64,000 nucleotides of DNA, from assembly GCA_044892505.1 (NCBI GenBank), contig CM097884.1, forward strand, positions 68,696,001-68,760,000, given 5' to 3'. A model generated the notes under the pieces. It searched no databases. It was not told the origin of the DNA and saw only the letters and a program-made list of their open reading frames with translations. The DNA is from Schmidtea nova (taxonomy: Eukaryota). Positions 24,332 through 58,935 of the stretch are shown in pieces. The translations under genes and the position numbers were made by a program. The stretch's first letter is position 1. Each line of letters starts with the position of its first letter.

Positions 24332-24418
<87 letters not shown>

Positions 24419-25177: not shown

Positions 25178-25317
25178 TGGGGATTTGCACTGGGTATCAC
25201 AAAAAAAATCACAAGCTTTTTTTTTGTTTGATATATATATATAAATATAAATAAATATATATAAATATATATATATATATTATCATAATTATCTTTTTTC
25301 ACCTTTGATCTTTTTTT

Positions 25318-25429
25318 ATTATTATTATCAATAATTCTCATAATGACTATAGATCAAAATTTTTTTTTATAAACAATTGTTTATAAAAAAAAATTTTGAT
25401 CTATAGTCATTATGAGAATTATTGATAAT

Positions 25430-25435
<6 letters not shown>
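25318..25435. repeat. Perfect 118-bp spacerless palindrome, same family as 18251-18436
   Basis: 59-bp arms meeting at AAACAA|TTGTTT. Shares the flank AAAAAAGATCAAAGGTGAAAAAAGATAATTATGA (inverted) with the 18.4-kb copy. Confidence 0.95.
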
Positions 25436-25514
<79 letters not shown>

Positions 25515-26329
25515 TTAATATAAAATATCTAAAATGTTACTCGTTAAATTAATTAATTAAATTATTTTTAATTTAAAAGGAGTTTTGGAACTCCTTACAA
25601 GGATATTCGTCTTTCCCACGTCTTTCCCACATCTCATTTATGTATCATATACATACTACTGTATTTTATAGCCAATTTATTAATTACTTAATGTTCAGAT
25701 TTTCTTTTCGTTATTTTATTCTCATCTGTAATGACAAATTTCTTTGCATGCCCAGAATCTAAATGTCTTTGATTCTCCTTTATAGTCTTCATAATCTGAA
25801 TTTCTTCCTCTTTGTGTGTAATTGAATTTTCGATTATCTGGTCTTCCGTTTTGATAGGGTCATCTATTTATCGAGTTTGGCCTACTCTGAATATTTCGAT
25901 TATTATCTTTTTTATTTTTTCAAATTGGTTTTCCATGTTGGTTGCGTGTAGGGTTATATCTAGGATTAAGTTTGGCTTTTATATTCTCTTCATGGACAAA
26001 ATACAATAACAGTTCCTCGCGTATGTACCCACGATCATTTCTGATGATCGCATTGGTAATGTACCTAGCGGCCTGCGAACGCATATAGGCAGGTGAGCTG
26101 CATTGCTGCGACTGCTCCTAACTTCTAATTCGGGTTCACTAATGTCAATAAAAGACCTTAAGTTTTCTAATTAAGCCCCTCTGGTGACAAATATTTGCTA
26201 AACGATTTCTCATCTTAGTATATCACCTTAGCTTCACAAATACACTAATTTTATTTACAAATCAAAGAATCAAGATAACAAAATTATACACTAACACATT
26301 TATTTCACTGTACAACGCGACATTTACAA

Positions 26330-32562: not shown

Positions 32563-34958
32563 TTACCGGAAATAGTTATTCAAACTTTTGATCAATTTCC
32601 ACAAAAATCCTTTTTTCTTTTTAGTTTTTGTTGACAATTTATTCGGATTGAAAGATTCATGAAAAGTTTGATCTTCCAATTTCGATGTTGAATTGTATTT
32701 CTTTTCCGAATCATTTATTTCTTTCGGCGTTTCTTCGGTAATTTGCAATGAATTCTGTTTCAATGTTTCATTGTTGCAATCGCCGTCATGTTGCAGCTCA
32801 TAATAATCCATGTATTGGTAAACTTCATCGAAAAGATTTGTCCATTGTCCTTTTTTAATTAATTCCAGATCTTCGCCGCCATTTAGTTCTGAAAGTAAAT
32901 CAATATTTCCCGTGACACTAGAATTTCCCGATTTGATATTATCCATGAAACTGAGGAGGCATCGATTTTCGGAACAACTTTCTTTGTGATTGGCTGAATT
33001 CTGAACTTCGTTTTCCTCTAAGGTTTTAATCGATTCATCTGATGAATATTGTGAACTGGCGCTGGGTTCGGAAGTGCGATTTCCTTTCATAACATATTGA
33101 TCACAAACAAGTGCTTTCGTTGATTTCTTACTAGATACGCTGTTATCACTGTGATACCATGAGTCATCTGTGTTTTGATCGCTCAACTGATTTCTCTCAT
33201 CGCACTCATTGGATGAAGTTTCTGAAGCAATCGGAGATTGCATTTCATTGGTGAAAATTTCATTCTCTTTTTCTGCACTTAAAACAAAATTATGTCTTTT
33301 TGGAATTGGTGGTTTTTCCGATGAATATTCAGATTCCTAAATAAAAAACAAAAAAAATCATTAAAATATCCAATTAAAAAGTTTTCATATTCTTAATTTT
33401 TTTGTATGTTTCAATATTGCTCCCAATTCTCTCAGGCTACCAGTTAATATTGTGTTTCATATTTAGCACGAATTAAGGTAGTCTCACAAAAAGAAAAGTA
33501 TTCGATAAAAAATTGAATATATCAATAGTGAAAAATTAAGATTTTACTTACATTTATCATTTGTTTAGTTGGAGTGATATTTATATTGTAGGTTTTCTTG
33601 TGAAGCATTCTAATAAAATGGGAACAATCAATGGAATATTAATAAAAACAATATTTGATTACCGATATGCATATTCGTTCCGTTTGAACAGTTCTATTAG
33701 AAATCCATTATCATATGTTCGCAACATTGTGGATTGTTTCTTTCCGATCTTGTCCGAATATAAAATTGTGAGATTTCCCAGCATTTCATAGCAATTGATG
33801 TAACTTTTCCATGAAAACGCTTCTGGATTCGGGTGATAGACTGTTATTCCTTTCGGAGATATTCCAATGAAAATATCTTGCGATTTCAGTGACTAAAAAT
33901 AAAATTGAAAATTAGAGAAAAAATTTGAAAATTTTCCCTACTTTTGCATGATATCGTTCTTCTCCGTATCCCGGATAGTTGAGTGCTTTATCAATAAATA
34001 AAAGATCGGCTTGCAAAAATGTCAATGATCTTAAAAGAAAAATTAATTTGATAAATAAAACTGAAATAATATCCCAATAAAATAAATTCTTACTGTATTT
34101 GTTTATATTCATGAATAAATTCATTTCTTGTTTCTTTCTTATTCATTATTTCCGGGCAAATTAAATTATCCCTACCAAAATGTATCGATTTGAATTGCTC
34201 GCGATCATAACTGCCGTATTGTGAAAAGAATAAAATTGCCGATAATTTTATTGATTCATTGATAGAGCATTTTATTCTAAAATAGATTTATTATTATTAT
34301 TATTATTATTATTTATTGATTGAACTCACTTTTGATTTCGAATGTCATTCTTAAGTTGTTCGATCAAATAATAGATTGTCATGTAATCTTCCACATAGAT
34401 TAAATTGGAGGGATAATATTGAAACATGAAAATAAATACAATATTGTTTACTCCTTCTAGAAATAGGTGAAAATTATAATAATTAATCAAAAGCCTTTTT
34501 CTAGATGACACTTACTCATTGCTTTGACGATATTTTCATCGGGTTTGAGCCAACGCTAAAAATAATGTTTTAAATATTACTTATAAATTATTGATAAAAA
34601 TTCTAACTTTATTTCCATGTAATTTAGACAGGTATTGCAAGCCAAAAAAGTTTTTCTCTACGATGTTTAAATCTTGACAGATTTTTGATACCAAATTCGA
34701 TCCGGTGTAATTTCTCTGGATAATAAATAATTAATAATATATAAAACAATAATAAAAATAACATACATCGAATTCGTATCGGGTTACAATTTCGTTGAAT
34801 ATTCTTACTTCACATTCGTATTTTTTGGATTTTTTGGTGTTTGCTGTTTGATTAAAATTGTCATTGATTATTCGACGATTTTCATTGGCCAGCGATTTAT
34901 ACATATTAAATCTTGAATTATCGACTAAACTGTAGTAGTAGGTATTTGAATATTCCAT
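32563..34958 (-). CDS. FERM (band 4.1) domain gene, copy A (inverted)
   Basis: Reverse complement of copies B and C with the same exons and splice sites. Homology spans ~31958-35191. Confidence 0.9.
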
Positions 34959-35310
34959 TTGTATTATATTTGTAAAAATGAATTTTTAAATATTTTCTCA
35001 TCTTTTCTAGATAAGTATTACTCAATAAGATGAATAAATTTGAAATAAAAATATTTGTATTTCCTCATTTTAAAAAACAGAAAATATTTCCGCAAAAAAT
35101 AAACATTTATATATATATATATATATAAACGAGCCTAGACTTTCAAATTTTTTAATATGCTTCTATTTACTAAGTTATGTCATTCACAAACTCGTTAGTG
35201 AGTACTTGATTTGTTTGGAAACTGATTGGGAGCTATTATTCTGCTGGTTCGAACCCGAAATATTCCTGACATTACTGCCTACAGAAATTGGATCCAGTAT
35301 GTGCCAACTT

Positions 35311-38300
35311 ATTTTCTAGCGGGATAGTTGTTATTCTCGGAATTAAAACTTTTATTATAAAAATTATGTCGAAAATATTATAAATGAAATAAATATATTA
35401 ATTTATTTTAAAAAATTGATTGTTAAAATTTGAAAATGTCTAACACTAAGAGTTTGATTATTTTTACTTTTATTTGTTCTTTCGTTTAATTATTCAAAGT
35501 CATTCTTAAAAAGATTCTAGGGCTGTAACCTATTTTAAAAGTAGTCTTGGATTATTGTGCTCCCAAGTTGTTGGTATGTAAAATATACCATTTCACTGGT
35601 ATCAATATCGAGGAGTTGTTTGAAATGCACTACGATATGGTGCTTTGGGCTGGAGTCAAATGAGTCGAAAACTGCATTCTAGCACCAATGGATGTTCTTG
35701 CTGTCATGATTTTAAACGACAGCAATCGGTTCATCTTTGGTAGCTGAAATGAGAAAGTCACACTATTCTGATATTTACAATACCAAATACATTAATTTGC
35801 GGAAGAATATCAAGATGATGCCGAAGAAGATTTGATTTAAATCAAAATTTACTTTAAAATTTCGTGGTTTTTATTGATGTTTCTTTTTGTTAATATTTTT
35901 GTGAATTTTCATTGACGCTTGGTAATTTTGAGAGTCATTCGTGTTTATTTATTGTCTTGTTGTTTGTCAATCCTTTTTATGATTTTTTTGTGTATTGATC
36001 TTTTTTATAGAATTTTTATAAGTTGGAATTTGTTTTTGCAGATCAGTTATTTATGTGATTTGTAAAATTTCTATTGTTTTGCAAAAACTTTAGAAAAATT
36101 AATAAATTTCAAAGATTTTTAAAAAGGTTTTAAAATTGAAATAAATATATATAATTTTTATTTTATGTCACTGGTTATGCAATGAAAATATTATATAATT
36201 GAGTACTTAATTATAAAATATTATATAATTCTGAAATATTGCGTTAATTTTGTAACCTCCTAGAAATATAGGGAGACTAATTGTAATTGATAGAGTTTAT
36301 GGATAAATGACTTGTACCAGAGTGTTCACTTCTCCCTACTGATCAAATCAATAATAAATTCTAGTGTTCTTTTTTTCAGTGTAGTCATCATGCTAAAACA
36401 TGAGGAAATTTAGCAGGTGGCGTTTTTTTGCGGAATGATAAAATTGCCAAAATTTTAACAGTATACGTTGATCCAATATTCAAAAACCAAAATTAGAACA
36501 TATTGTTATGGTTTGCATGAACAGGCACGAAATAAAATAAAACTTACAAAAATATACGCAAAAAATATAAAAGCCTGTAAATTTAAAAAATAATATTAAA
36601 ATACAAAAATTAATTAGAAATTTGAAAATTTTGAAAGTAAAGATTTAGCGGGGAAACTAGTATAGGAGGATGAGACGAATTAAAATACGGTAAGATGAAA
36701 TTAAAAAGGGCCCCGAAAAAATAGGAAAAAACAAATTAATTAAAGGAATTAATTATTCAATGGAAAACCCGAGTGATGTGAGGAACCCTAGCCATCAGCA
36801 AATATATCTAATTATCAAGAAAATCAGATGAGTAGAGGGAGTTCGGGCGAACAATCACAAACCCAATTACTCCAAACTAATTGGAAATCCCGCAGTAAAA
36901 AAGGAAGTCACTATAAAAACCCAGACAAATGGCTCAAATCGCCAATTGGTCGAAGCATGAAAATTTAATTCCAAAATTAGCTATAGTTTTCAAAGAGAAG
37001 TTTTAAAGTTAAAAAAGGTTAGAATTTGTGTCGAATCAATTTTTGCGTACCAGAAAAGAATCTCCAACATGAAGACCTACCCCTAACGCAAGAACAGTGT
37101 AGAAAATTCTGTTTTTGTAATTTTGAAGCCAAATTTGAAAATAAAAATTTTTGTGTTGGGTTTTGGTTAATTCGTTTATACAGAAAGGACACAGGGAGTC
37201 AGACAGTAATCGACTATTAAATAATAACCCAACAATATTTACTAATGTAAAGTTTTTGTTTCAAAAATTAAATTTTATTTATGTTAACTTTATTTCTTAG
37301 ACTTTTTATAGCCAAAATAGTGAGAAACTTATCCCAGGATGAATAATGTAAAAATTAATTCAGTTTGTGAATAATATAACTTGGTAAATAGAAGCATATT
37401 AAAAATTATGAAAGCCTAAATGTTTATTTTTTGCGGAAATATTTTCTGTTTTTTAAAATGAGGAAATACAAATATTTTTATTTCAAATTTATTCATCTTA
37501 TTGAGTAATAATTATCTAGAAATGATGAGAAAATATTTAAAAATTCATTTTTACAAATATAATACAAATGGAATATTCAAATACCTACTACTACAGTTTA
37601 GTCGATAATTCAAGATTTAATATGTATAAATCGCTGGCCAATGAAAATCGTCGAATAATCAATGACAATTTTAATCAAACAGCAAACACCAAAAAATCCA
37701 AAAAATACGAATGTGAAGTAAGAATATTCAACGAAATTGTAACCCGATACGAATTCGATGTATGTTATTTTTATTATTGTTTTATATATTATTAATTATT
37801 TATTATCCAGAGAAATTACACCGGATCGAATTTGGTATCAAAAATCTGTCAAGATTTAAACATCGTAGAGAAAAACTTTTTTGGCTTGCAATACCTGTCT
37901 AAATTACATGGAAATAAAGTTAGAATTTTTATCAATAATTTATAAGTAATATTTAAAACATTATTTTTAGCGTTGGCTCAAACCCGATGAAAATATCGTC
38001 AAAGCAATGAGTAAGTGTCATCTAGAAAAAGGCTTTTGATTAATTATTATAATTTTCACCTATTTCTAGAAGGAGTAAACAATATTGTATTTATTTTCAT
38101 GTTTCAATATTATCCCTCCAATTTAATCTATGTGGAAGATTACATGACAATCTATTATTTGATCGAACAACTTAAGAATGACATTCGAAATCAAAAGTGA
38201 GTTCAATCAATAAATAATAATAATAATAATAATAATAAATCTATTTTAGAATAAAATGCTCTATCAATGAATCAATAAAATTATCGGCAATTTTATTCTT

Positions 38301-40350
38301 TTCACAATACGGCAGTTATGATCGCGAGCAATTCAAATCGATACATTTTGGTAGGGATAATTTAATTTGCCCGGAAATAATGAATAAGAAAGAAACAAGA
38401 AATGAATTTATTCATGAATATAAACAAATACAGTAAGAATTTATTTTATTGGGATATTATTTCAGTTTTATTTATCAAATTAATTTTTCTTTTAAGATCA
38501 TTGACATTTTTGCAAGCCGATCTTTTATTTATTGATAAAGCACTCAACTATCCGGGATACGGAGAAGAACGATATCATGCAAAAGTAGGGAAAATTTTCA
38601 AATTTTTTCTCTAATTTTCAATTTTATTTTTAGTCACTGAAATCGCAAGATATTTTCATTGGAATATCTCCGAAAGGAATAACAGTCTATCACCCGAATC
38701 CAGAAGCGTTTTCATGGAAAAGTTACATCAATTGCTATGAAATGCTGGGAAATCTCACAATTTTATATTCGGACAAGATCGGAAAGAAACAATCCACAAT
38801 GTTGCGAACATATGATAATGGATTTCTAATAGAACTGTTCAAACGGAACGAATATGCATATCGGTAATCAAATATTGATTTTATTAATATTCCATTGATT
38901 GTTCCCATTTTATTAGAATGCTTCACAAGAAAACCTACAATATAAATATCACTCCAACTAAACAAATGATAAATGTAAGTAAAATCTTAATTTTTCACTA
39001 TTGATATATTCAATTTTTTATCGAATACTTTTCTTTTTGTGAGACTACCTTAATTCGTGCTAAATATGAAACACAATATTAACTGGTAGCCTGAGAGAAT
39101 TGGGAGCAATATTGAAACATACAAAAAAATTAAGAATATGAAAACTTTTTAATTGGATATTTTAATGATTTTTTTGTTTTTTATTTAGGAATCTGAATAT
39201 TCATCGGAAAAACCACCAATTCCAAAAAGACATAATTTTGTTTTAAGTGCAGAAAAAGAGAATGAAATTTTCACCAATGAAATGCAATCTCCGATTGCTT
39301 CAGAAACTTCATCCAATGAGTGCGATGAGAGAAATCAGTTGAGCGATCAAAACACAGATGACTCATGGTATCACAGTGATAACAGCGTATCTAGTAAGAA
39401 ATCAACGAAAGCACTTGTTTGTGATCAATATGTTATGAAAGGAAATCGCACTTCCGAACCCAGCGCCAGTTCACAATATTCATCAGATGAATCGATTAAA
39501 ACCTTAGAGGAAAACGAAGTTCAGAATTCAGCCAATCACAAAGAAAGTTGTTCCGAAAATCGATGCCTCCTCAGTTTCATGGATAATATCAAATCGGGAA
39601 ATTCTAGTGTCACGGGAAATATTGATTTACTTTCAGAACTAAATGGCGGCGAAGATCTGGAATTAATTAAAAAAGGACAATGGACAAATCTTTTCGATGA
39701 AGTTTACCGATACATGGATTATTATGAGCTGCAACATGACGGCGATTGCAACAATGAAACATTGAAACAGAATTCATTGCAAATTACCGAAGAAACGCCG
39801 AAAGAAATAAATGATTCGGAAAAGAAATACAATTCAACATCGAAATTGGAAGATCAAACTTTTCATGAATCTTTCAATCCGAATAAATTGTCAACAAAAA
39901 CTAAAAAGAAAAAAGGATTTTTGTGGAAATTGATCAAAAGTTTGAATAACTATTTCCGATAATTGGGAAAATTAATCATTTACATTCATGGAGGATTTTT
40001 ATATTTCTGATTGAATAATTGATAAATGTTTGCTGTGGTATTTATTTGGCTTTCATTCAAGTCAAATTTATAAAATATCCCGATTAATAATGTTGTGCTA
40101 ATATAGTTTCGGTAGGACTAAATTTTATTCTGACTCCTTGTGTTCTTTGAAAATCAATGAAATCCAACAAAAAAAATGTTTATTTATTAAGAACACATTT
40201 CCACAACGTTAATACACTTCGATTTTTGCTTTGGCTAAACTATCCGAAGGACGTCACCCATGAAATCTGATAGAGATGATATTCATTTTTAATCACTGAC
40301 GATTCTCCTTAATTTTCTAAAATTCTTAAATTTCTTACTCAAAATATTTT
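35311..40350 (+). repeat. 5.0-kb segment duplicated directly at 52013-57106
   Basis: Both copies start ATTTTCTAGCGGGATAG and end CTTACTCAAAATATTTT. Near identical apart from a 12-bp minisatellite expansion at ~53560-53630. Confidence 0.95.
37568..39962 (+). CDS. FERM (band 4.1) domain gene, copy B; 9 exons, 599 aa
   Basis: Exons 37568-37759, 37811-37918, 37971-38010, 38070-38196, 38250-38432, 38497-38584, 38634-38863, 38917-38974 and 39189-39962 join via GT-AG introns into an 1800-nt open frame. FERM motifs: ICQDLNIVEKNFFGLQY, RWLKP, FQYYP, YYLIEQLKNDI, YGSYD, QADLLFIDKA..YG, DIFIGISPKGITVY..FSW. Acidic/Ser-rich tail. Confidence 0.92.
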
Positions 40351-41424
40351 TGTTGAGGTTCCAAGAATCTCAACTTGATGAACTTATATAAATAAATAAG
40401 TCAAAGACTGGTTCTTTTCTAAACTTTATTTAAATTATAACAATTTACAATTTTGATAAAAATTAAACAATTACCTCACAAAATATATGTATCAATTTCA
40501 ACATATATTTTATATATGTATAGATGCGTGTGTGTGTGTGAATATTTGCAGCTTCCTGAGCTCGGATGTGTAAATAGGTATGCTCAAATTATGTTGTAAT
40601 ATCAATTTATTGAATTTACAACTCTTCTTTAAAGCTTTTGATTTTTGGGTGATTTAACTGAAAAATCAGTCAGTTTATATACTAAATTTTAAGGCACTTA
40701 ATCTGTCAATAATGATTGTTATTTTGCCTCTTGAGTTGATTGAAATTGTTTTTGAAAATAGAGTTGTTTTCAAAACAGAATTGTTTTCAAAATTATTTTT
40801 TAACCTTGAGATATTATTTCATTTTTCTGACCTTGTAGGTCAGAAATATAATTTATTTAAACAAACAGTAATTTATTTATTTTTAATTTATTTAAACAAT
40901 CTGTATTATTTATTTATTTATTTTATTATTATTATTATTTATTGAATTAAAATATTAAAATATAAATGAAAATATAATCCATTTTCCAAATAGTTAAAAA
41001 ATTAATTTACATAAAATATTTTCAACACAAAATATTTTTTCAAAATTATATAAAATTTTGTCCATCACCATAAAAATGTCAATAAATGTTCGCAATATCA
41101 CAAATGATAAATTGTCAAATTTTAAATTGTCATGATGATAAATTGTCATTATAAAAATTAATTTTCAACAATATTTTATTAACAGAAACAAAATAAAATT
41201 ATCCCATAAAAATAAAAATTGCCAGATAGTCATCACATAAAATATTATCATATAAAATCACTAAAATCATAATGTCATTGAATTTGATATTTTCCATTGT
41301 CTATCTATTTTAAAAAAATACATCAACAAATAAAATCAATTATTCATATCATCAATTATCAAAACCAATAAAATAAAAGAAAATGTTATCACAATCAAAT
41401 GTAGTTCATCAAGTCAAATTATTA

Positions 41425-43179
41425 TCATTGTTGGCCTGGGTTCTGATTGTTGTTATCCACATACACATTTAGTCTGTACTTATTTGCCCCTATTGTATAA
41501 TTTTCATCTATCTCAAAATTTTCGACTATCTTCCCTGTATCTAACACTACTCCCTGGGGCGTCAAGGTTATGTCCTCATAACCTTTTTCAACATAATATA
41601 TGTGTATTTCATTCCCATCTACAATCACTGTTGTTTTCTTTACATTGCTATTATATGTGACAGTGATTTCTGGCATGGGTTCTTCTATTGTGATTTGAGG
41701 TTCTGGTCCTAATTCATCTTCTTCCATTGGCTCAATTCCTTCTACTTCCAAATTAGAGTTATCTTCATCTATTGTTATGATTTCAAATGTTGGTTTCTTA
41801 TTTCCGTCCGATGTGGAACAATTTTCTTTAATTGTTTTCTTTGTTATTGTTTTCATTCCATTGTCAGCAGCTTTTTCCCATTCGGTTTCTGTGAGTAAAT
41901 ATAGTAAGCGAACTATTAAGCAAGTTTCACCAACATTAAAAGGTTCTGGTTTTAATAATATATTATTAAGTTTTTTGTTTCTCTTCAGATCATTTGTATT
42001 CTTAATAATCTGAAATGCTAAATTTGATAATTTAATCCTGTCTTCCGGGACATTATTGACGAATGTTTTCATATATTCGGTGTTCGAGAGTTCTCTTACT
42101 CCCATAATATCATCCAGGTCTATTGTGACACTTTTCAGTTTTTTCATAATGTCGAAACCTACTATTATTTTTCCATAGAGGTGTTTCTTGATTTCTAACA
42201 ATGCTATGAATTCGTCCATATTGCCTATACTATTTTCTCTGGTAGCCATTGTGATTTCTGGAAAGAATCTTTGTATTTTTTCTCTTGGGGTAATTTTACT
42301 TTGAAATAGTGTGTCTCCTTTGTAGTTTCTAATACAGACATCTACTGGTCTGTACTCTTTATTAAAATCTTGTACCGCTTTTATGTCTACAAAAGTTATT
42401 TTTCCTTGTCTTTCTTCGGGTGTTAGTGTTTGCTTCGTGAAAGGTATTTTCTTTTCTACGAATATGTTATCCATTCTAATGTCTGACCAAATGGGTTCTA
42501 ATTTTTTAAAGGGATTTTCTATTGTGGGTACATATAATATTTCAATTGCAATTACACATGGCATATTGTGTAATTGTATAATGATATTGTTGAATTCTGT
42601 AGACAATTTACGTTCTCTAAGGGTTTTAAATATTATTGATGTATTGTTTGCAGTCGCTAATACTTTATCGTTGTGTTTTAGTGATATTGTTGTTTTGGTA
42701 GTATGAATTACTATTCTATGGGGAATTTTGATGCCTTCTCTTGCATCTCTATCTGCATTTTGACTTTCTTCAAAACTACCTATAATTTCTTTTAATTTAA
42801 ATCTTCTTGATGAGTTGAATTTTACGATGATCATTTCTCTTTCTTCTATATCTACTTTTAATGCATTTGGTATGCATACCTGATTCGGGAATTTCCTTAG
42901 TGTAATTTCTTCATCATCTGTGTGAATGCTATTTTGAATGATCTTATAAAATGCTGTGTGGTGTTTATATGTGGTGCATGTGGATGTGCATGTGGATATT
43001 GTTGAGCTTGACTGATTGTTTGAGGCTGATTGGTTCATTGGTTGGATTGTTGGTTGATCTATTCTAAAAATAAAATATGACATTATATATTTTATATTAA
43101 TGCAGCTGTAGGACCTACCCTTAGATGCAATATAATATATTGTCAGATATGGGTAAATTTTATAAATTATTGGACACAT
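41425..43179 (-). CDS. Element ORF2 (584 aa): beta-rich N-domain, inactive DEDDh exonuclease-like domain (~41900-42405), acidic linker
   Basis: FVDIKAV..PVDVCIRNYKGDTLFQSKITP..EIT..LYGKIIVGFDI..VRELS..KLSNLA..FNVGET follows the REX4/ISG20 pattern, but the catalytic E, D, H and D appear replaced. Confidence 0.75.
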   Translation of the reverse strand: MCPIIYKIYPYLTIYYIASKGRSYSCINIKYIMSYFIFRIDQPTIQPMNQSASNNQSSSTISTCTSTCTTYKHHTAFYKIIQNSIHTDDEEITLRKFPNQVCIPNALKVDIEEREMIIVKFNSSRRFKLKEIIGSFEESQNADRDAREGIKIPHRIVIHTTKTTISLKHNDKVLATANNTSIIFKTLRERKLSTEFNNIIIQLHNMPCVIAIEILYVPTIENPFKKLEPIWSDIRMDNIFVEKKIPFTKQTLTPEERQGKITFVDIKAVQDFNKEYRPVDVCIRNYKGDTLFQSKITPREKIQRFFPEITMATRENSIGNMDEFIALLEIKKHLYGKIIVGFDIMKKLKSVTIDLDDIMGVRELSNTEYMKTFVNNVPEDRIKLSNLAFQIIKNTNDLKRNKKLNNILLKPEPFNVGETCLIVRLLYLLTETEWEKAADNGMKTITKKTIKENCSTSDGNKKPTFEIITIDEDNSNLEVEGIEPMEEDELGPEPQITIEEPMPEITVTYNSNVKKTTVIVDGNEIHIYYVEKGYEDITLTPQGVVLDTGKIVENFEIDENYTIGANKYRLNVYVDNNNQNPGQQ

Positions 43180-43273
43180 ATATAGATGATTTTGATATAA
43201 TTTTATTGGGTAAAATGATTTCTGAAATATGATTGGATGGGCTATTTTACAATTTATGATTGGGTTTTTTATT

Positions 43274-46200
43274 TTAACAAAGGGTAGATAGTGTGTACCT
43301 TCCAGGTATATATCTAATGAGAGAACTCCGATAACGCTGCCTCTTCCACTTATATTTTCTATAAGTTTGCGTTCCTATCCACATTGTTATAGTTATTAAT
43401 AATATTATGCTAAAAATTATTACATACATTGGCCATGTTTTATATAAAAGTTTTGGTTGGGGGTGATACAGATTTTGAAATTCTTCCCAGTTATTTATTG
43501 TTATTGCAGGTTTATTTAATGGTATTCTATTTAATATTCTAGGTTTTTCCGTTTGGGATCTTCTCTGCTTTTTCCTTTTGTATATTTTCTGAGATTTTGT
43601 TTTTATTATTTCACATTGGGTCTTTTTCAAATGCCACATTGGTGTTTCTGTACAGAAATAATAATTAGTGTCGGGTTTCAAATTTGTGTATCTGTCGATA
43701 TATTTCTTTTCGTTATTTTTCGTCTTTTGTATAACTTTTGAATTATTAATAAATTTTAAGTATGATTGAATCATTGGGTTCCTATTTAGATTAATAATTG
43801 TGATTTTATCATGTTCTCTTATTATTTTTATATCCTTGTTATTAATTATATTTGCATTAGCTGTATTAAATATAATGAGGGTGATTATTGATATCATTAA
43901 TATACTTTGTGGTTGTGATCTTAAGTTGTATTTATGTGGTTTTATTATTGGTAGTTCGTCTTCTGCAAGTTTGCATCTATTGACGTGCACAACAGTTGGA
44001 TCCTCGTTCTTATTTTTTTGGATATGTAAATTTTCGTTGATCACTTTTATGACTTCGTATGGGCCTTTAAATGGTCGTGCTAGTTTAGTTGTCTTACCCT
44101 TGCCTACTTGTGGTGACATTAATCTAATTTTGTCGCCTATTTTAAAATTATGAGGTTTAGCCGTTTTATCGTATTCATCCTTGTATTGTTCTTGACGAAA
44201 TTTAACTTTTAGATTAGTTATTTTATATACTTCTTGTAATCTTTCTTGCATTAGCGTAACATAATCTGGGGTGTCTAAATATTGTGATATTTTTGGTTCA
44301 AAGACCGTGTCAATTGGCATTATTGGTTCCCTTAAGTACATCAAATAGTATGGTGAATATCCAGTTGTTTCATTTGGTGTGATGTTATGGATATAAGTAC
44401 ATTGGTTTATATATTCATCCCAGTCGTTTTGATTTTTATTTACAAAAACTGATAGTCTATTCAATAATGTACCATTAAATCTTTCTACTAATCCATCTGT
44501 TTGAGGGTGGTATGCTGTTGTATTTATTTTTTGTATATTAAAAATATTAGCTATTCTAGAAATTGTTTCGCTCATAAAATTTCTTCCTTTATCGGTGAGT
44601 AATTTTCTTGGTGTGCCTAACTTAAATATAATTTTTTCCGTTAATAGCTTAGCTACTGTTTCCGCTGTTTCATCTTTTGTTGGAAAAGCTTCTGCCCACT
44701 TTGTGAAATAATCACTAAAAACCAATATGTGTTTATTACCGTTTATTGTAGTGGGTAATTTGCATAAAAAGTCCATGGCACATAGTTCCATAGGAGCTGT
44801 TGTTACAGGTATTGGACGAAGTGGTGCTCTTGTTTTAGTACCTGTATTTCTTCTAGTAGCACATATAGTACATGCTTTACACCACGCTTTAACATCATTT
44901 TTTAAATTTTCCCAGTAGTATTTTTGTAATAGTCTATTTGCTGTTTTTCTGGCTGATAAGTGACCTCCTAGTGTTCCATCATGATATTGTAATAAAAGTA
45001 TTTTTCTTAATTTTTGAGGGACTATAATGAGTTTATTCCCTGTCGTGCTTTCTATTATCAATAAATTTTTATTGATTTTATATTTATGGTTTTTTCCTTT
45101 TTTAATTTCATCTCTTATTTTTGATAAATCAGGATCGTTCATTTGTTCTTCATATATATGTATAGGGTTTTCTGCAACTATTGCGAATACTTCTAGAGCA
45201 CTTAATTCTGGTATACGAGATAATGCATCTGCATTCTTATTTATTCTGCCAGGTTTATAGATAATTTTAATTTGCATATCTTGAATCTTCATTGCCCATT
45301 TTAATAATCTACTTGAAGTATCTTTATGCTTCCATAACCCTTCTAATGGTTTGTGATCGGTTCTTATTATTACTTCTGATCCGTATATATATTGCTTGAA
45401 CTGTTTTAACGCAAACATAATAGCATAACATTCTTTCTCTATCGTCGAATATCTGATTTCAGCATTCTTTAACGTTTTGCTTGCATATGCGATGACGTAG
45501 TCTTTTCCTTTTTCCTCTTCTTGGCCTAAGACTGCTCCTACGGCTTTCCCGCTGGCATCTGTCATAATGATAAATTGTTTAGTAAAATCAGGGTATCTAA
45601 GTATTGGTGCAGTCACTAATTTTTCTTTCAGTTGTTCAAAGGAACTTTGTTGTCTTTGAGTCCACAATTTTTGTGGTTTTTCGTTAATTTTGTTTAATTT
45701 TTGGACTATCAGTGTTTTTCTTCCATCTTCCTTTGTTTTTACTCCTTTTGTTAATTCAATTAATGGAGCTGCTATTTTAGCATAATTTTCGATAAATTTT
45801 CGATAATACCCTGTTAAACCTAAAAATCCTTGTACTTCCTTAACTGATTTTGGTATTGGAAATCGTTGTACTGTTTTTATTTTGTCTGGGTTTGGGATTA
45901 TGCCTTCTACTGAGACAATATGTCCTAAATATAAGGCTGAAGGTTCTGCCCATTTACATTTTGTAGGTTTAATTTTAATTTTTGATTTTCTAAATCTTTC
46001 TAATACATTTTTTATATCTTCTAGATGTTCCTCGAATGTTTTTGATGCTATCAGTACATCATCCATATATACTGCGCAATGTTGTACATCTATCAATATC
46101 GTATTCATTAGCCTTTGAAATGTTGCTGGTGCATTTACCATTCCGAATGGTAGTCTTAAGAATTCGTATAGCTCATTTTCTATCACAAATGCTGATTTTT

Positions 46201-49200
46201 CAATATCTCCTTCTTCTATTTGGATTTGCATATATCCTTTATTAGCATCTATGACCGTAAAATATTTAGCGCCTCTTAGTTTATCGTATTGTTCTTGTGC
46301 CTTTGGAAATGGATATGAGTCTTTTGTTGTTACTTCGTTTAATTTTCTATAATCGATACACATTCTAATTTCGCCATCTTTCTTTCTAACTGGTACTATT
46401 GGTGAAGCCCACTGTGAGAAACTTTGTCTAATTACTCCTGCCCCTTTTAGTTCATTTATTTGTCTCTTTATTTCTTCTCGAAGTTTATATGGTGTTACAT
46501 AGGGTCGTTGTTTTATTGGTCTAGCGTTCCCTGTATCAATTACATGTTTAATGATATCCGTGTCTCCTAGATCAAATTCGTGCTTTGCAAAAACATCATT
46601 ATATTTATCAATTAATATCTGCAATAATTTTTGTTGAACCTTGTCCAGATAATCGTTATTTATTGTAGTCTTTTCGTAAAATTTAATGTCATTCGGTTTA
46701 ATTGTATCTTCAAGGTTGTTACTTTCTATACTTATCTCGCCAATATCGTATTTATATTTTGATAATTGACCTAATTTTGTACCTTTATGAATTTTTATTT
46801 TTCTGTTTTCGAAATTGGCAATTCGAATTGGGATTATACCCTTTTTGGGTATTACACATTCGTCCGTTAGCATTATATTTCTATTTTCTGTAATCGTTGT
46901 GTTGGGTTCGAAAATAAATATGTCATCACTTTGAATATTAACTTTTATAGGTATAATATTATCACTTTCATATTCTAGTTCAAATTCTTCTATCGCGCTT
47001 ACTTCTATCGGCTTTTTATAACTTTTGTTTATCTTTCTTTTTATTTTGTTATCTGACAAATCTATTACATGATTCTTTAATTTTTTCAGAATATCTATGC
47101 CTAGAATACATTTCCTTTGACATATATCTGCTACTCGGAACACATGATCTATGGTCTGATTTTCAAAGTATACTGTAAGTTTTACGTTTCCTTTAATAGG
47201 TATAGTGTGTGAAGAAAGTGACAATAATTCATCATTTGTTGATGTGATATTTTGAAGTTGTTTTTCTGTTAGTAGATCTTCTTCTATCAATGATGCAGCG
47301 GCACCGGTATCTACTAGCGCATTTAGTATTTGATTGTTTATCGTTATTTGGGTTCTTGGCCTCATGTCGTTCGCTTCTTCTCTTTCTTCTAGTCCATAAC
47401 ATCCGTATACTTTCTTTGGTTTTCTTATCAGCGTGTGGGTGTTATAATCTTTTAGAGGTATATTAGTTTCGATCTCATTGCCTAGATTTCTTAATTGATC
47501 CATGTGTATAATATATGGTCCTCCTTGCGTTGGTTCCGTGTGATCGAATTCTTCCGTATGATTATTTTCTTGATTGGTATTGTCATCTATTAGTCTTTCT
47601 TCTGTTGTCTTTCTTATTATTCTTTTGATATCTTTATCATGTTTTGCAGTTATTAAATATTTTGCAATAAATGGACATAAACAAGCTAGCATTTTGTATG
47701 AATTGCCAAATACTTGTCTCAGCTGTCTTAATGATACTAGTGATGAACATATCATTTTTAGTAGTGCAATAGAATAATAGATGCCGAGTATGGTTGAGAA
47801 GGTATTTCCTAGGATTGCAAAGTATCCCCATATACTATATAGAACTCGATAAACTACCTTCTTGAAGTGTTCTTTTGATAACAAGATGTCGAAATTGTAT
47901 TGTCCATCGTGGCTATTCTCGATAACTTTGCTTGCTATTATTGTTAGTACTTTCTCCTTTTCGTTCGGAAATAATAAATGTTTTCTTGCACTTTCTATGT
48001 CTTCCTTTGTATAAAGTCCATTGTTATCAAAATCATTTACTTCTATGAATTCTAGTTTCTTATCTAGTTCTGTCATTTCTAGATTTAGTGGTCTTATTGC
48101 TACCTTCTTATCTGACATCGTTATCCATGTTTCGTCATCTAATTTATATAGAGGGTCTAATAAGTTTGTACATTTATCTATTCTCTTAGGTATGTAGTTT
48201 TTATCTGTTAGTATCCTTGTTATGGGTTGTAAGTAGACTTTCTCTCCCTTATAAATAACTGGTAATTCGTTTGTACATTGTTTGTTCGTAGCTAATGATA
48301 CACTGACTGGTTTACATTGAAATGTTTGGATTACTTCGCCGACAACTCTAGCAAATGCGCCTCTTTCTGAAAAGAGCATTGGGGCCATTAGATCCGGATT
48401 TGTAATTGCTAATGCCATTTTCGTTCTTAAAATTTCTCGGTTAAGCTTACAATCATTTATTATTGTTTCTTGATATACCCTATCTAATTGCATTAATTGA
48501 TGGTGATAAAAATAGTCGATCTTATTATTGAAATATGATGAAAGTTTAATATCGTATTTGTTTACTTTTATTTTCGCATCTTTTATTTCATCTTTACTCA
48601 AATATAGACCTTTATAATTGGTTTGTATTATTGACTTTCCACATTTTATAATTTCCCCTTTACTAACAAATCTCAATGCTTCTCCTGAAGATTCTGTCAT
48701 ATATATTGTGGGTGTATCTTTTTCTTGGATTACAATTGTCTTTCGTTTTCTATCTCTTACTTTAGTTGATTCTGTATTTGTAAACTGTTTGCCTTTAATT
48801 GCTGTAAATTTTAGCGACTTCAATATTGTTAGAGGACAATCGTATGGATCAACTTTATATATTACTATTGATTCACCAGTGTCACAACTTACTTCTTTTG
48901 ATGTACAGAAAGGGTGTGTCATCATTTTTTGTGTTATGCTGTCAAATGATGCTTTAAACTGTCTAAGTTCGACAATGTATTCTCGTCTTACAACGGCGTT
49001 TTTTATAATGTGTCCCCATATTCTATATTCCCCACCTTGACAATATCCTCCCTGTGAAGACCATCCAATTACATCTACTCGTTGTTTTACTCGTGCACCT
49101 ACCTGTGCTTTTAGTTCGATTTCATGTATTTTTATCTTCTTTGATTGAAATGCATTTTCACACTCTTGTGGTGTTATTATAACTGTGTCTGGTGTAAATG

Positions 49201-52012
49201 ACGGTCGGAGTATCGTCCTTGCTATATTATTACATACAAAGACTTCTTCAGAATATTTTATTACACATTCTTTTGCTTCTGTATGTATAAAATCAGATTC
49301 TTGATAAACATAAAATATTTTAGGTTCTGTGGTACTTAAAGTGGTTGGATTAGCTTCTGGGCAATTTTCTACATCTAATAGTGAATATTTTTGTCCCCAT
49401 TTTGGATTCTGACAATCATAAGCGATCATACCTGTACTACTCTTTATTAAGTTAAGTAATATTGTTATCATCATTATTATAATAGGTATTGATAATCCAT
49501 GATTACTTTTTCCTGATTTCATCAATGTTTTATTTATTATTTTCTTTAATCGTCTTTCAACTTTTTTTTCTTGGGTATCTATTTCTATGGTAGGTGTCTC
49601 TATCGGCACTGTTTTATCGTATAAGATTTGCCACCCACCTTTAGACTGTATCCATGGTATCACTTCGGGTTTAAATTTTATTAATATTTGTTCGGCTACT
49701 CGATGTACTTGTTTCTCCGCATTTTTTATCAATACATATTCTGATCTATAAATGAGGTATGCCAATGCTGTTACTACTCTATCCCGATTGATTCCTGTTC
49801 TGAATAATATTTTCAAGACAACTTTTTCATTAACATCTTCAGTCACTAAGTTTTTTATATCTGTTGTAATTAGTTTAATTCGATTCCCTATGTTATCTGC
49901 TAAAGATGATATGTTTGCGTTGGAATATAATCTTGGGTATACAGTTTTAATCAAATCTATAATTATATCTGTATCTTCACTATTTGTTGACATTTCGCTT
50001 GCAATCTCTCTCAATTTTTCCGCCATCCGTTTACTGGTAAACTTATTTGTTATTTCTGACTCTTGTGACTCATCTCCATCTTGTTTTATCGTTTCAAAAT
50101 CCTCTGCTTCATATGTTACATCGTTTTTCTGACTCGCATCTGATATAGATATTCTTCTATCATTAGCAATCCATTCATCTAGCATTGATTCTAATCCCAC
50201 TTTAACTGATACGGTTATTATATTGTTATCAATTGAATTTATCCCATAGTCCATTAAAAAATCTTCACTTTGCATCTTTATTCCGTAAAAGTATAATACT
50301 ATTTCATCATTGATTCCTATTTCGCTGTACCAATTTGCTCTGGCTATTTGTTTTATCTTTTTCACTTTTGTACAAGTATGTACCCCTTGTTTATGAATGA
50401 TGATTTTAGGTGTATCTCCATTTTTTGTTTCTAATGTAATTTCCAAGGGTTCATGTAACTTCTCATTTTTTCGAACAAATTCACTATAACATCTCAACAT
50501 CTCTTTTATCTCAATTTCTAATTCAAACAACTTTGTTTCCTTTTGTCTTTGAGCCAATAGCGGTATCAAGTTTCTCAGATTCTCAAGATTTATCCCCTCT
50601 ACATGAATTTTATTTAATATTCTCAATACTTCATTATCATCTATAGGGTACTTTTTTAAAGATTCGTCCAATTCTTGCTTTAAAATATTATGTCTATCTA
50701 TCTCTGCTAGTAATTCTTCATCTCTTTCTCTTTGTTCTCTTAATTCATCATTATCCATCTTAACTTCATTAGTAAAAGTTTTAAACTCATTAATCAATAC
50801 ATTAATTTTATTCCTTTCAATTAGTCTCTCATATTTTGTCTTAAATTCTTGTAATTCATCCCTCAGCATCTCGATTTCATTATTGGGTTCTTTAACCTCC
50901 ATACCATTTATTTGTTTCACCTCTGGCTCCTTTTTAAACTGCACTCTGTTTGGTGATTCAACTCGTATATTTCTACATGCTTTTGCCATATGACCATACT
51001 TTTGACAATTAAAACATTTTATTTCACCTCGAAAATTAATTTTGTCTCTTCCATCATTATTAAATGGGCTAGGTCTTCTATCTCGATTATACATTTGTTG
51101 ATTTGGACTTGGTCGTCTACCTCTAAGATTATCTCTATTTGACCCAAAATTATATCTATTATCATCATATCTATTTCGATCAGAACTGTTCCTTGTATTA
51201 AAGTTATCCCTATAGTTCCGATTATCATTAAAACGACTATTTTTATTATATCGATTATTATCAAAATAATTATCCCTATTATAGTTTAAACGTCTCTCAT
51301 TATCTTTATTATATTCAAAGTAATTATTTTTATCATTTCTGGTAAATTCTACATAATTGTCATTTCGACTATTCGGTCTACCCCTTGGGCTATTTGACCT
51401 CTTATTATTTTCTGGTGATTGATTTCGACTTGCATTTGGACTCATCCTTTTTCTATTTTTAACAAAATTCAAATATAACTGCTTCATCTCTTCCCATGGA
51501 ATATTATCATCTTTATCAGTTACCTCAGATTTCCCTATTTTACTCTCTAATTCTACTGCATCAATTGTTGCGTTAGATCTATCTCTTTGAATTGCTTCAA
51601 TTCTTCGAGCTTTCTGAACTAGTTCGTTTAAATCTTCATATTCGACCATTATTAATGCCTTGTATAAATATTTTTGAATTCCACTCCAAAATTGATCCTC
51701 TATTAATTTCGCAGTATGTTCTCCTACTCCAAAAGCTTTTCGAGCTAACTCGGTCAAATTATACACATATTCTCCAATTGTTTCTCTGCTACCTTGGTAT
51801 CTATTTCTAAATTTTTGTACATTAATTTTCTGCAAATCTCGCTCAATTACAATTTCACCTCTTAAATTGTTGACTAAGTCTTCCCAATTTCTACCCTTAC
51901 ATTCTAAATTATTATATGCCTGCAATGCATAACCCTTTAAATATAATGGAATTCGTCTTTTTAACTCATCTTGTGTCCACCCACAAGCCTCTGCGTATTG
52001 TGCAATTTCATC
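43274..52012 (-). CDS. Single polyprotein Gag-Bcl2-like-Env-PR-RT-RH-IN-FN3-like/TM
   Basis: The frame stays open upstream of the listed TTG start (IAQYAEACGWTQDELKRRIPLYLKGYA). Zinc knuckle CFNCQKYGHMAKAC 50975-51016; protease LVDTGAAASLI ~47305; RT YMDD ~46060; RNase H TDAS ~45555; integrase HHCC + DDE core ~44450-44985; GPY ~44085. No stop or frameshift in 8.7 kb. Confidence 0.95.
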   Translation of the reverse strand, partial: DEIAQYAEACGWTQDELKRRIPLYLKGYALQAYNNLECKGRNWEDLVNNLRGEIVIERDLQKINVQKFRNRYQGSRETIGEYVYNLTELARKAFGVGEHTAKLIEDQFWSGIQKYLYKALIMVEYEDLNELVQKARRIEAIQRDRSNATIDAVELESKIGKSEVTDKDDNIPWEEMKQLYLNFVKNRKRMSPNASRNQSPENNKRSNSPRGRPNSRNDNYVEFTRNDKNNYFEYNKDNERRLNYNRDNYFDNNRYNKNSRFNDNRNYRDNFNTRNSSDRNRYDDNRYNFGSNRDNLRGRRPSPNQQMYNRDRRPSPFNNDGRDKINFRGEIKCFNCQKYGHMAKACRNIRVESPNRVQFKKEPEVKQINGMEVKEPNNEIEMLRDELQEFKTKYERLIERNKINVLINEFKTFTNEVKMDNDELREQRERDEELLAEIDRHNILKQELDESLKKYPIDDNEVLRILNKIHVEGINLENLRNLIPLLAQRQKETKLFELEIEIKEMLRCYSEFVRKNEKLHEPLEITLETKNGDTPKIIIHKQGVHTCTKVKKIKQIARANWYSEIGINDEIVLYFYGIKMQSEDFLMDYGINSIDNNIITVSVKVGLESMLDEWIANDRRISISDASQKNDVTYEAEDFETIKQDGDESQESEITNKFTSKRMAEKLREIASEMSTNSEDTDIIIDLIKTVYPRLYSNANISSLADNIGNRIKLITTDIKNLVTEDVNEKVVLKILFRTGINRDRVVTALAYLIYRSEYVLIKNAEKQVHRVAEQILIKFKPEVIPWIQSKGGWQILYDKTVPIETPTIEIDTQEKKVERRLKKIINKTLMKSGKSNHGLSIPIIIMMITILLNLIKSSTGMIAYDCQNPKWGQKYSLLDVENCPEANPTTLSTTEPKIFYVYQESDFIHTEAKECVIKYSEEVFVCNNIARTILRPSFTPDTVIITPQECENAFQSKKIKIHEIELKAQVGARVKQRVDVIGWSSQGGYCQGGEYRIWGHIIKNAVVRREYIVELRQFKASFDSITQKMMTHPFCTSKEVSCDTGESIVIYKVDPYDCPLTILKSLKFTAIKGKQFTNTESTKVRDRKRKTIVIQEKDTPTIYMTESSGEALRFVSKGEIIKCGKSIIQTNYKGLYLSKDEIKDAKIKVNKYDIKLSSYFNNKIDYFYHHQLMQLDRVYQETIINDCKLNREILRTKMALAITNPDLMAPMLFSERGAFARVVGEVIQTFQCKPVSVSLATNKQCTNELPVIYKGEKVYLQPITRILTDKNYIPKRIDKCTNLLDPLYKLDDETWITMSDKKVAIRPLNLEMTELDKKLEFIEVNDFDNNGLYTKEDIESARKHLLFPNEKEKVLTIIASKVIENSHDGQYNFDILLSKEHFKKVVYRVLYSIWGYFAILGNTFSTILGIYYSIALLKMICSSLVSLRQLRQVFGNSYKMLACLCPFIAKYLITAKHDKDIKRIIRKTTEERLIDDNTNQENNHTEEFDHTEPTQGGPYIIHMDQLRNLGNEIETNIPLKDYNTHTLIRKPKKVYGCYGLEEREEANDMRPRTQITINNQILNALVDTGAAASLIEEDLLTEKQLQNITSTNDELLSLSSHTIPIKGNVKLTVYFENQTIDHVFRVADICQRKCILGIDILKKLKNHVIDLSDNKIKRKINKSYKKPIEVSAIEEFELEYESDNIIPIKVNIQSDDIFIFEPNTTITENRNIMLTDECVIPKKGIIPIRIANFENRKIKIHKGTKLGQLSKYKYDIGEISIESNNLEDTIKPNDIKFYEKTTINNDYLDKVQQKLLQILIDKYNDVFAKHEFDLGDTDIIKHVIDTGNARPIKQRPYVTPYKLREEIKRQINELKGAGVIRQSFSQWASPIVPVRKKDGEIRMCIDYRKLNEVTTKDSYPFPKAQEQYDKLRGAKYFTVIDANKGYMQIQIEEGDIEKSAFVIENELYEFLRLPFGMVNAPATFQRLMNTILIDVQHCAVYMDDVLIASKTFEEHLEDIKNVLERFRKSKIKIKPTKCKWAEPSALYLGHIVSVEGIIPNPDKIKTVQRFPIPKSVKEVQGFLGLTGYYRKFIENYAKIAAPLIELTKGVKTKEDGRKTLIVQKLNKINEKPQKLWTQRQQSSFEQLKEKLVTAPILRYPDFTKQFIIMTDASGKAVGAVLGQEEEKGKDYVIAYASKTLKNAEIRYSTIEKECYAIMFALKQFKQYIYGSEVIIRTDHKPLEGLWKHKDTSSRLLKWAMKIQDMQIKIIYKPGRINKNADALSRIPELSALEVFAIVAENPIHIYEEQMNDPDLSKIRDEIKKGKNHKYKINKNLLIIESTTGNKLIIVPQKLRKILLLQYHDGTLGGHLSARKTANRLLQKYYWENLKNDVKAWCKACTICATRRNTGTKTRAPLRPIPVTTAPMELCAMDFLCKLPTTINGNKHILVFSDYFTKWAEAFPTKDETAETVAKLLTEKIIFKLGTPRKLLTDKGRNFMSETISRIANIFNIQKINTTAYHPQTDGLVERFNGTLLNRLSVFVNKNQNDWDEYINQCTYIHNITPNETTGYSPYYLMYLREPIMPIDTVFEPKISQYLDTPDYVTLMQERLQEVYKITNLKVKFRQEQYKDEYDKTAKPHNFKIGDKIRLMSPQVGKGKTTKLARPFKGPYEVIKVINENLHIQKNKNEDPTVVHVNRCKLAEDELPIIKPHKYNLRSQPQSILMISIITLIIFNTANANIINNKDIKIIREHDKITIINLNRNPMIQSYLKFINNSKVIQKTKNNEKKYIDRYTNLKPDTNYYFCTETPMWHLKKTQCEIIKTKSQKIYKRKKQRRSQTEKPRILNRIPLNKPAITINNWEEFQNLYHPQPKLLYKTWPMYVIIFSIILLITITMWIGTQTYRKYKWKRQRYRSSLIRYIPGRYTLSTLC
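47650..49500 (-). other. Chuvirus-type (class III, gB-related) envelope glycoprotein domain
   Basis: Signal-like IPIIIMMITILLNLIKSSTG, then AYDC..YSLLDVENC, YDCPL, CG..I..TNY.GLYL, DCKLNR, GAFARVVGE..CKPV, CTNELPV.Y..YLQPITRIL, then a hydrophobic anchor VLYSIWGYFAILG..IYYSIALLKMIC. Confidence 0.8.
49615..50035 (-). other. Bcl-2 family domain within the polyprotein
   Basis: BH3-like MAEKLREIASEM, BH1-like LFRTGINRDRVVTALAY and BH2-like VIPWIQSKGGWQIL, in the correct order and with plausible spacing. Confidence 0.8.
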
Positions 52013-54322
52013 ATTTTCTAGCGGGATAGTTGTTATTCTCGGAATTAAAACTTTTATTATAAAAATTATGTCGAAAATATTATAAATGAAATAAATATAT
52101 TAATTTATTTTAAAAAATTGATTGTTAAAATTTGAAAATGTCTAACACTAAGAGTTTGATTATTTTTACTTTTATTTGTTCTTTCGTTTAATTATTCAAA
52201 GTCATTCTTAAAAAGATTCTAGGGCTGTAACCTATTTTAAAAGTAGTCTTGGATTATTGTGCTCCCAAGTTGTTGGTATGTAAAATATACCATTTCACTG
52301 GTATCAATATCGAGGAGTTGTTTGAAATGCACTACGATATGGTGCTTTGGGCTGGAGTCAAATGAGTCGAAAACTGCATTCTAGCACCAATGGATGTTCT
52401 TGCTGTCATGATTTTAAACGACAGCAATCGGTTCATCTTTGGTAGCTGAAATGAGAAAGTCACACTATTCTGATATTTACAATACCAAATACATTAATTT
52501 GCGGAAGAATATCAAGATGATGCCGAAGAAGATTTGATTTAAATCAAAATTTACTTTAAAATTTCGTGGTTTTTATTGATGTTTCTTTTTGTTAATATTT
52601 TTGTGAATTTTCATTGACGCTTGGTAATTTTGAGAGTCATTCGTGTTTATTTATTGTCTTGTTGTTTGTCAATCCTTTTTATGATTTTTTTGTGTATTGA
52701 TCTTTTTTATAGAATTTTTATAAGTTGGAATTTGTTTTTGCAGATCAGTTATTTATGTGATTTGTAAAATTTCTATTGTTTTGCAAAAACTTTAGAAAAA
52801 TTAATAAATTTCAAAGATTTTTAAAAAGGTTTTAAAATTGAAATAAATATATATAATTTTTATTTTATGTCACTGGTTATGCAATGAAAATATTATATAA
52901 TTGAGTACTTAATTATAAAATATTATATAATTCTGAAATATTGCGTTAATTTTGTAACCTCCTAGAAATATAGGGAGACTAATTGTAATTGATAGAGTTT
53001 ATGGATAAATGACTTGTACCAGAGTGTTCACTTCTCCCTACTGATCAAATCAATAATAAATTCTAGTGTTCTTTTTTTCAGTGTAGTCATCAAGCTAAAA
53101 CATGAGGAAATTTAGCAGGTGGCGTTTTTTTGCGGAATGATAAAATTGCCAAAATTTTAACAGTATACGTTGATCCAATATTCAAAAACCAAAATTAGAA
53201 CATATTGTTATGGTTTGCATGAACAGGCACGAAATAAAATAAAACTTACAAAAATATACGCAAAAAATATAAAAGCCTGTAAATTTAAAAAATAATATTA
53301 AAATACAAAAATTAATTAGAAATTTGAAAATTTTGAAAGTAAAGATTTAGCGGGGAAACTAGTATAGGAGGATGAGACGAATTAAAATACGGTAAGATGA
53401 AATTAAAAAGGGCCCCGAAAAAATAGGAAAAAACAAATTAATTAAAGGAATTAATTATTCAATGGAAAACCCGAGTGATGTGAGGAACCCTAGCCATCAG
53501 CAAATATATCTAATTATCAAGAAAATCAGATGAGTAGAGGGAGTTCGGGCGAACAATCACAAACCCAATCAAAAACCCAATCACAAACCCAATCACAAAC
53601 AATCACAAACCCAATCACAAACCCAATTACGAAATTGGAAATCCCGCAGTAAAAAAGGAAGTCACTATAAAAACCCAGACAAATGGCTCAAATCGCCAAT
53701 TGGTCGAAGCATGAAAATTTAATTCCAAAATTAGCTATAGTTTTCAAAGAGAAGTTTTAAAGTTAAAAAAGGTTAGAATTTGTGTCGAATCAATTTTTGC
53801 GTACCAGAAAAGAATCTCCAACATGAAGACCTACCCCTAACGCAAGAACAGTGTAGAAAATTCTGTTTTTGTAATTTTGAAGCCAAATTTGAAAATAAAA
53901 ATTTTTGTGTTGGGTTTTGGTTAATTCGTTTATACAGAAAGGACACAGGGAGTCAGACAGTAATCGACTATTAAATAATAACCCAACAATATTTACTAAT
54001 GTAAAGTTTTTGTTTCAAAAATTAAATTTTATTTATGTTAAACTTTATTTCTTAGACTTTTTATAGCCAAAATAGTGAGAAACTTATCCCAGGATGAATA
54101 ATGTAAAAATTAATTCAGTTTGTGAATAATATAACTTGGTAAATAGAAGCATATTAAAAATTATGAAAGCCTAAATGTTTATTTTTTGCGGAAATATTTT
54201 CTGTTTTTTAAAATGAGGAAATACAAATATTTTTATTTCAAATTTATTCATCTTATTGAGTAATAATTATCTAGAAATGATGAGAAAATATTTAAAAATT
54301 CATTTTTACAAATATAATACAA

Positions 54323-56718: not shown

Positions 56719-57319
56719 TTGGGAAAATTAATCATTTACATTCATGGAGGATTTTTATATTTCTGATTGAATAATTGATAAATGTTTGCTGTGGTATTTA
56801 TTTGGCTTTCATTCAAGTCAAACTTATAAAATATCCCGATTAATAATGTTGTGCTAATATAGTTTCGGTAGGAACACATTTTATTCTGACTCCTTGTGTT
56901 CTTTGAAAATCAATGAAATCCAACAAAAAAAATGTTTATTTATTAAGAACACATTTCCACAACGTTAATACACTTCGATTTTTGCTTTGGCTAAACTATC
57001 CGAAGGACGTTACCCATGAAATCTGATAGAGACGATATTCATTTTTAATCACTGACGATTCTCCTTAATTTTCTTAAATTCTTAAATTTCTTACTCAAAA
57101 TATTTTTAAATATTTCTCCTCAGACCAATTGGTAATTTTATTGAGATGAATTGGTTTATATACCACTCTCAATCCCATCAATCACTCTGGAGAAGCATGA
57201 AATCCAACTCTTCACACTAATTTTAAAATTTGAAATTTTCTTTGTTAGTGGCGCTCTGATAAATAGTTTTCCGGCTTGTCAGATCTGCCACTTTACCTCC
57301 TTTCCACAATGATTGGTGA

Positions 57320-58933: not shown

Positions 58934-58935
58934 TA

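Follow-up and report, generated by a model that had tools for sequence, protein, structure and literature searches.

An ISG20/REX4-type exonuclease fold with a replaced active site, encoded by an accessory gene of an env-carrying Ty3/gypsy element in Schmidtea nova

The stretch of Schmidtea nova DNA analysed here (the window; 64,000 nucleotides of contig CM097884.1) contains an open reading frame, ORF2, which belongs as an accessory gene to a Ty3/gypsy element with an env and encodes a DEDDh exonuclease fold in which most of the catalytic residues have been replaced. The sequence strongly suggests that ORF2 has lost hydrolysis. Our preferred reading, to which we assign a probability of roughly 0.42, is that ORF2 is an RNA-binding pseudonuclease that does not cut and would serve the element's own RNA in the host cell. 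The frame, its domains and the signals upstream of it are as follows.

41425..43179, minus strand: ORF2, 584 codons counted from the first ATG
42523..42972, minus strand: N-terminal cupin-like double-stranded beta-helix domain, about residues 70-219
41863..42402, minus strand: ISG20/REX4-type DEDDh exonuclease fold, residues 260-439, from alignment and model
41428..41859, minus strand: acidic tail, residues 441-584
43064..43069, minus strand: splice-acceptor-like TTTTAG, with a second AG five bases on
43268-43273 and 43202-43207, minus strand: AATAAA, upstream of the TTTTAG

Translation of the minus strand of 41425-43179 gave 584 residues without a stop, so that the frame is intact, as the first-pass annotation had stated. 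The likely protein has 537 residues and starts at Met48 (43038), because the putative splice acceptor lies just upstream and relatives begin at this point. The first 47 codons are probably untranslated, because the TTTTAG lies 26 nt before Met48 and is similar to the acceptors of the neighbouring host gene. A two-domain fold, cupin-like plus nuclease, is predicted, and the pTM of 0.90 suggests that both domains pack as one unit. The N-terminal domain forms a double-stranded beta-helix of the cupin / 2OG-Fe(II) oxygenase type in the model, and such folds are among the matches listed for model residues 1-150. A ConA beta-sandwich, which had been proposed for this region, was not among the matches listed, the N-terminal domain being folded only within the longer model. 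The conserved residues of the cupin-like domain in the family alignment are Y78, P104-N105, K108, R114, H159 and E213. Cupins and 2OG-Fe(II) oxygenases bind metal through an HxH or HxD...H motif; the domain alignment contained no HxH or HxD motif, H159 and E213 being the sole conserved His and Glu. The acidic tail has a net charge of -16 and can be aligned to the closest relative, P0004, at low identity. We found no match between the apparent cupin-DEDDh architecture and any described protein.

Alignment, profile comparison and the structure model all confirmed the REX4/ISG20-type fold that had been proposed from the sequence. Residues 260-439 contain a DnaQ-like fold with Exo I-III in order, and ORF2 shares both the fold and the register of all three Exo motifs with ISG20/REX4-type DEDDh proteins; hhalign of ORF2 to a REXO1 gave the same register as the ISG20 alignment. 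The nearest cellular relatives of the domain are ISG20L2, ISG20, SDN1 and REXO1, not proteins of the MUT-7 or EXD1 types. The degenerate motifs noted earlier (DIK in ExoI, K in ExoII and FNVGET in ExoIII) correspond to D265/K267, K347 and F414/T419. Of the five catalytic columns, only D265 is kept, with K267, K347, F414 and T419 in the other four, and ORF2 thus lacks the four acidic residues plus His that define DEDDh exonucleases. K347 aligns with ISG20 D94. F306 aligns with ISG20 R53, an RNA-contact residue, and this replacement counts against RNA binding. D265, D343 and E418 are still located near the old active site. K267 is covered by high-depth contigs identical to the window, which indicates that the dead site is not private to this copy. 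We regard the loss of activity as a strong inference because, according to the accessible part of PMC7756014, D11G, D94G or D154G alone abolishes the activity of ISG20. Compared with the ISG20, ISG20L2 and REX4 enzymes, ORF2 differs in these four replacements, in its N-terminal cupin-like domain and acidic tail, and in being encoded by an element.

The replaced active site is common in the family. When 64 family proteins were scored by column, fragments included, 35 kept D-E-(D/E)-H-D, 24 had at least two replacements, 4 were incomplete and 1 had one change. The ExoIII His is present in all 39 intact rows of the family alignment, and the DEDD-to-DEED change is common among intact members. The first-pass annotation had made its interpretation depend on conservation in sister elements, and P0003 and P0004, which look like gene models fused to unrelated sequence, keep the same D,K,K,F,T set as ORF2. 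ORF2 therewith appears to be kept rather than decaying, because these two relatives share the dead set, because they share 50% and 44% identity with ORF2 over the nuclease domain and 23% over the tail, and because full-domain dead members (n=19) retain invariant residues (P298, R299, D322, G360 and R362) at a mean pairwise identity of 25%. The invariant residues of dead members could be purely structural, and several sit in the cupin domain, where conservation among dead members (P104 1.00, N105 1.00, K108 0.93, R114 0.93, E213 0.94) equals or exceeds that among intact ones. The four intact paralogues L004-L007 gave dN/dS values of 0.05-0.10 for the cupin domain and, in the 5 of 6 pairs that could be measured, of 0.03-0.05 for the nuclease domain.

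In a tree of 59 rows, built with the catalytic columns removed and 12 incomplete rows left out and rooted on one REXO1, ORF2 falls within a dead D-x-K branch of 6 rows (SH-aLRT 97), one of which is a long-branch row without the D-x-K motif. The dead state needs two changes on this tree, and one origin is not rejected (p-AU 0.378); the long branches weaken both results and would also fit relaxed constraint. K or R occupies the catalytic Glu column in 11 of the 18 dead rows having a residue there, which may go back to one inherited change, given that a common origin of the dead members survives the test. The mean net charge of the domain is +4.1 in dead members (n=19; -4 to +14) and +1.2 in intact members (n=39; -10 to +9), a small shift with overlapping ranges that we treat as a weak hint of nucleic-acid binding. 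None of the 30 relatives looked up had an informative name. One family cluster recurs on numerous contigs measuring 15.6-17 kb, which hints at a discrete unit. The dead member P0020 carries a C-terminal RING finger (E 3e-7), placing a pseudonuclease and a ubiquitin-ligase domain in one chain.

The element that encodes ORF2 has the following features.

43274..52012, minus strand: ORF1, a single frame (P0002, 43274-51925)
47543..49483, minus strand: in-frame env between gag and protease (Pfam Monjiviricetes_fusion, E 1.2e-87)
49631..49819, minus strand: Bcl-2-like motif (E 3e-4; 21.6 bits, below the curated cut-off of 31.4)
40351..41340, minus strand: probable 3' LTR, with its CA end at 40351 and an approximate inner boundary

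ORF1 encodes gag, the Bcl-2-like motif, a viral fusion glycoprotein, protease, RT, RNase H, integrase and a membrane-anchored post-integrase extension. Both this element and the related loci L001 and L002 have PR-RT-RH-IN in the gypsy order and carry a viral fusion glycoprotein placed between gag and pol. The gag region is without its 5' end, since the frame is cut at 52012 by a duplicated host segment of ~5 kb (35311-40351 equals 52013-57107, 98.7% identity); the element's 5' end is missing in this copy, and the LTR evidence consists of one probable LTR, whose summed contig depth is ~10x that of the internal region. The copy is young, with 0-6 differences per 0.6-1.3 kb from the high-depth contigs, and the contigs covering ORF2, at a depth of about 290-370, show 0-3 differences, which hints at recent amplification. 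The genomic setting of a dead-type gene is known from this window alone. The post-integrase extension amounts to a second membrane protein (43277-43900 on the minus strand of the window, 8401-9633 in L001 and 7802-9019 in L002), in which a hydrophobic signal-like segment is followed by an ectodomain and a transmembrane helix, with no significant Pfam match in any of the three.

A metagenome scan, in which all loci were found through the intact motif, yielded seven loci (L001-L007) from 226 pattern matches, all from a single assembly. In L001 and L002 the exonuclease gene comes after an env-pol frame that shares 33-44% identity with ORF1, in L004 and L007 its neighbours are RING and TRAF-MATH ORFs, and in L006 a gag gene is located 2.1 kb beyond it; L003 and L005 do not extend far enough to reveal element genes. 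In L004 (300-3999) and L007 (640-1845) the cassette with the exonuclease gene also contains two RING-finger ORFs, together with a complete TRAF-like gene (RING, zf-TRAF, MATH). L001 ORF1 (1-9633) contains at least two aspartyl-protease-like stretches and additional hydrophobic segments between env and RT.

The accessory ORFs follow one another in head-to-tail order: a poly(A) signal comes shortly behind each stop, and the next ATG is immediately preceded by a splice acceptor. In the spacers of L001, L002, L004-L007 and the window (43039-43273), which are 118-337 nt long, 13 of 15 end in YAG within 5 nt of the ATG, as against 182 of 1,084 ATGs overall (17%). AATAAA lies within 80 nt of the upstream stop in 10 of 15 (shuffled mean 3.6; 0 of 2,000 shuffles). 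Four of the 15 are homologous repeats, and among the 11 independent spacers 10 have YAG and 7 have AATAAA. The window acceptor lies 26 nt before the ATG, not 0-5 nt as in most spacers. Eukaryotic operons are resolved by polyadenylation and spliced-leader trans-splicing, and the layout appears to resemble such a trans-spliced operon inside a retroelement; cis-splicing from a common leader would also fit. The pattern points to operon-like expression of retroelement accessory genes.

In our preferred reading, ORF2 would have an mRNA of its own, produced by splicing or trans-splicing, with Met48 as the start. Having lost hydrolysis, it would bind RNA through the old active-site groove, where two lysines occupy former metal-binding carboxylate positions, and the element would gain through capping of RNA 3' ends, or through RNA chaperoning, against host decay and small-RNA pathways. 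A DEDD fold without the catalytic set that is nevertheless conserved in evolution characterizes RNA-binding pseudonucleases, and ORF2 has both properties. The model for its function is provided by Exuperantia, PML-1 PXL and EXD1; PXL retains one of the four DEDD acids and yet binds RNA, as do Exuperantia and EXD1 (accessible parts of PMC13659232 and bioRxiv 10.1101/2025.08.03.668247). CERV of C. elegans Cer1, a gypsy-type accessory protein made from a spliced mRNA, acts on element RNA (accessible text of PMC10309623), and its likeness to ORF2 is an analogy of role only.

The first-pass annotation had interpreted the dead fold as a possible RNA-binding decoy or silencing/piRNA suppressor. The dead fold and its retention in relatives stand, and the suppressor function now becomes a rival that we consider doubtful, in which ORF2 lowers piRNA/siRNA control of the element, either by binding and withholding small RNAs or dsRNA or by ousting the host nucleases that carry out 3'-5' trimming. 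EXD1 does work in the piRNA pathway through an inactive domain (same two sources, in part), but the nearest cellular relatives of ORF2 are of the ISG20 kind described above, and neither sequence nor model contains a small-RNA pointer. The neighbouring cargo (the Bcl-2-like motif of ORF1 and the RING and TRAF-MATH ORFs of L004 and L007) looks host-manipulating and the contig depth hints at amplification; however, elements with intact nucleases persist too, and rotifer DEDDy ORF3 has no clear link to copy number in the accessible part of PMC5408684. It is also unlikely that ORF2 is a protein-interaction scaffold, in which selection acts on the cupin-like domain and outer surfaces and the nuclease fold is a structural partner that has lost RNA binding. 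The strong conservation of cupin residues in dead members and the packing of both domains as one unit agree with this, but those residues are also needed to fold the unit, no partner is indicated, and mere scaffolding would not lead one to expect basic residues where metal was once bound.

Quite unlikely, in our judgement, is a broader scheme in which env-carrying gypsy elements of trans-splicing invertebrates carry operon-like cassettes of captured host-control genes (Bcl-2, TRAF, RING, ISG20-like nuclease), with mRNAs freed by polyadenylation and spliced-leader trans-splicing, and in which the nuclease of one branch became an RNA-binding decoy suppressing small-RNA silencing. If true, the decoy branch would parallel the silencing suppressors of viruses, but with a transposon as the carrier. 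Certain degenerate DEDD folds (Maelstrom) are reported to be nucleases through a non-canonical site, and the three acids remaining near the old site of ORF2 might serve in this way; this is very unlikely, because they are not conserved in dead members (6 of 19 have D at the ExoI column) and the alignment of these members shows no new invariant His/Cys/acid cluster. Least probable of all is a vestige drifting after loss of activity and open only through the youth of the copy, since, for all the young copy and long dead branches, dead members keep long open frames at 25-50% identity and conservation in the domain is double that in the tail.

Among LTR elements, DEDD cargo has been described in bdelloid rotifers, where Juno and Vesta, also gypsy-type, carry a DEDD 3'-5' exonuclease as an extra ORF (ORF3) after pol; it is RNase D-like DEDDy, its invariant residues are intact, and the elements are without bona fide env (accessible part of PMC5408684; cited again in PMC6338049, likewise in part). 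The ORF2 family, in contrast, is ISG20/REX4-like DEDDh, cupin-fused, found in env-carrying elements and includes a large dead branch; its intact rows all have the ExoIII His, and ISG20-type proteins rank first, which places it outside the rotifer class. What appears new is the DEDDh type, the cupin fusion and the dead version. GAG-ENV-POL errantiviruses of Nematoda, Bryozoa and Platyhelminthes (HSV/gB-type env) have env in frame between gag and pol, as in the window (accessible part of PMC13524379), and an exonuclease ORF has 0 mentions in the main text and 7 supplements of that paper. Planarian Burro shares the in-frame env. It also has a BCL2-like motif before env, to which the below-cut-off Bcl-2-like motif of the window is a candidate counterpart, and TRAF-MATH accessory ORFs, which in the present family occur in L004 and L007. 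It differs in length (25-30 kb, against ~11.7 kb preserved in the window) and in its ORF1 of about 4,900 aa with MATH, BIR and ankyrin, whereas the window ORF1, with its 5' part missing, preserves about 2,900 aa without these Pfam matches; the accessible part of PMC6431247, the source for Burro, uses the term exonuclease only for Terminons. We found neither a DEDDh or cupin-DEDDh ORF in such elements nor a dead branch in the literature searched.

At the protein level, little is settled about the ways in which animal retrotransposons evade control by piRNA/siRNA and RNA decay. The family offers a natural paired experiment: one captured nuclease exists in dozens of versions, some intact and others dead, that share a two-domain scaffold, and the elements carrying it resemble complex retroviruses.

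A FERM-domain gene whose introns are short occurs three times around the element, at 31959-35192, 35311-40351 and 52013-57323; the copies are near-identical (98-99%), two being direct and the third inverted, and reflect either a recent rearrangement or an assembly artefact. Elsewhere in the window, 19622-25599 holds fragments derived from unrelated gypsy elements (protease, RT, RNase H, integrase), and in this region short repeats and long TA runs occur at about 20500, 24340 and 25430. A mariner-type transposase fragment (Transposase_1, E 2e-13) is located at 58930-59697 on the minus strand. A run of 393 N at 61590-61982 makes the ORFs listed over it (61354-62571 and others) unreliable, and is directly followed by imperfect ~120-nt repeats at 61983-62480.
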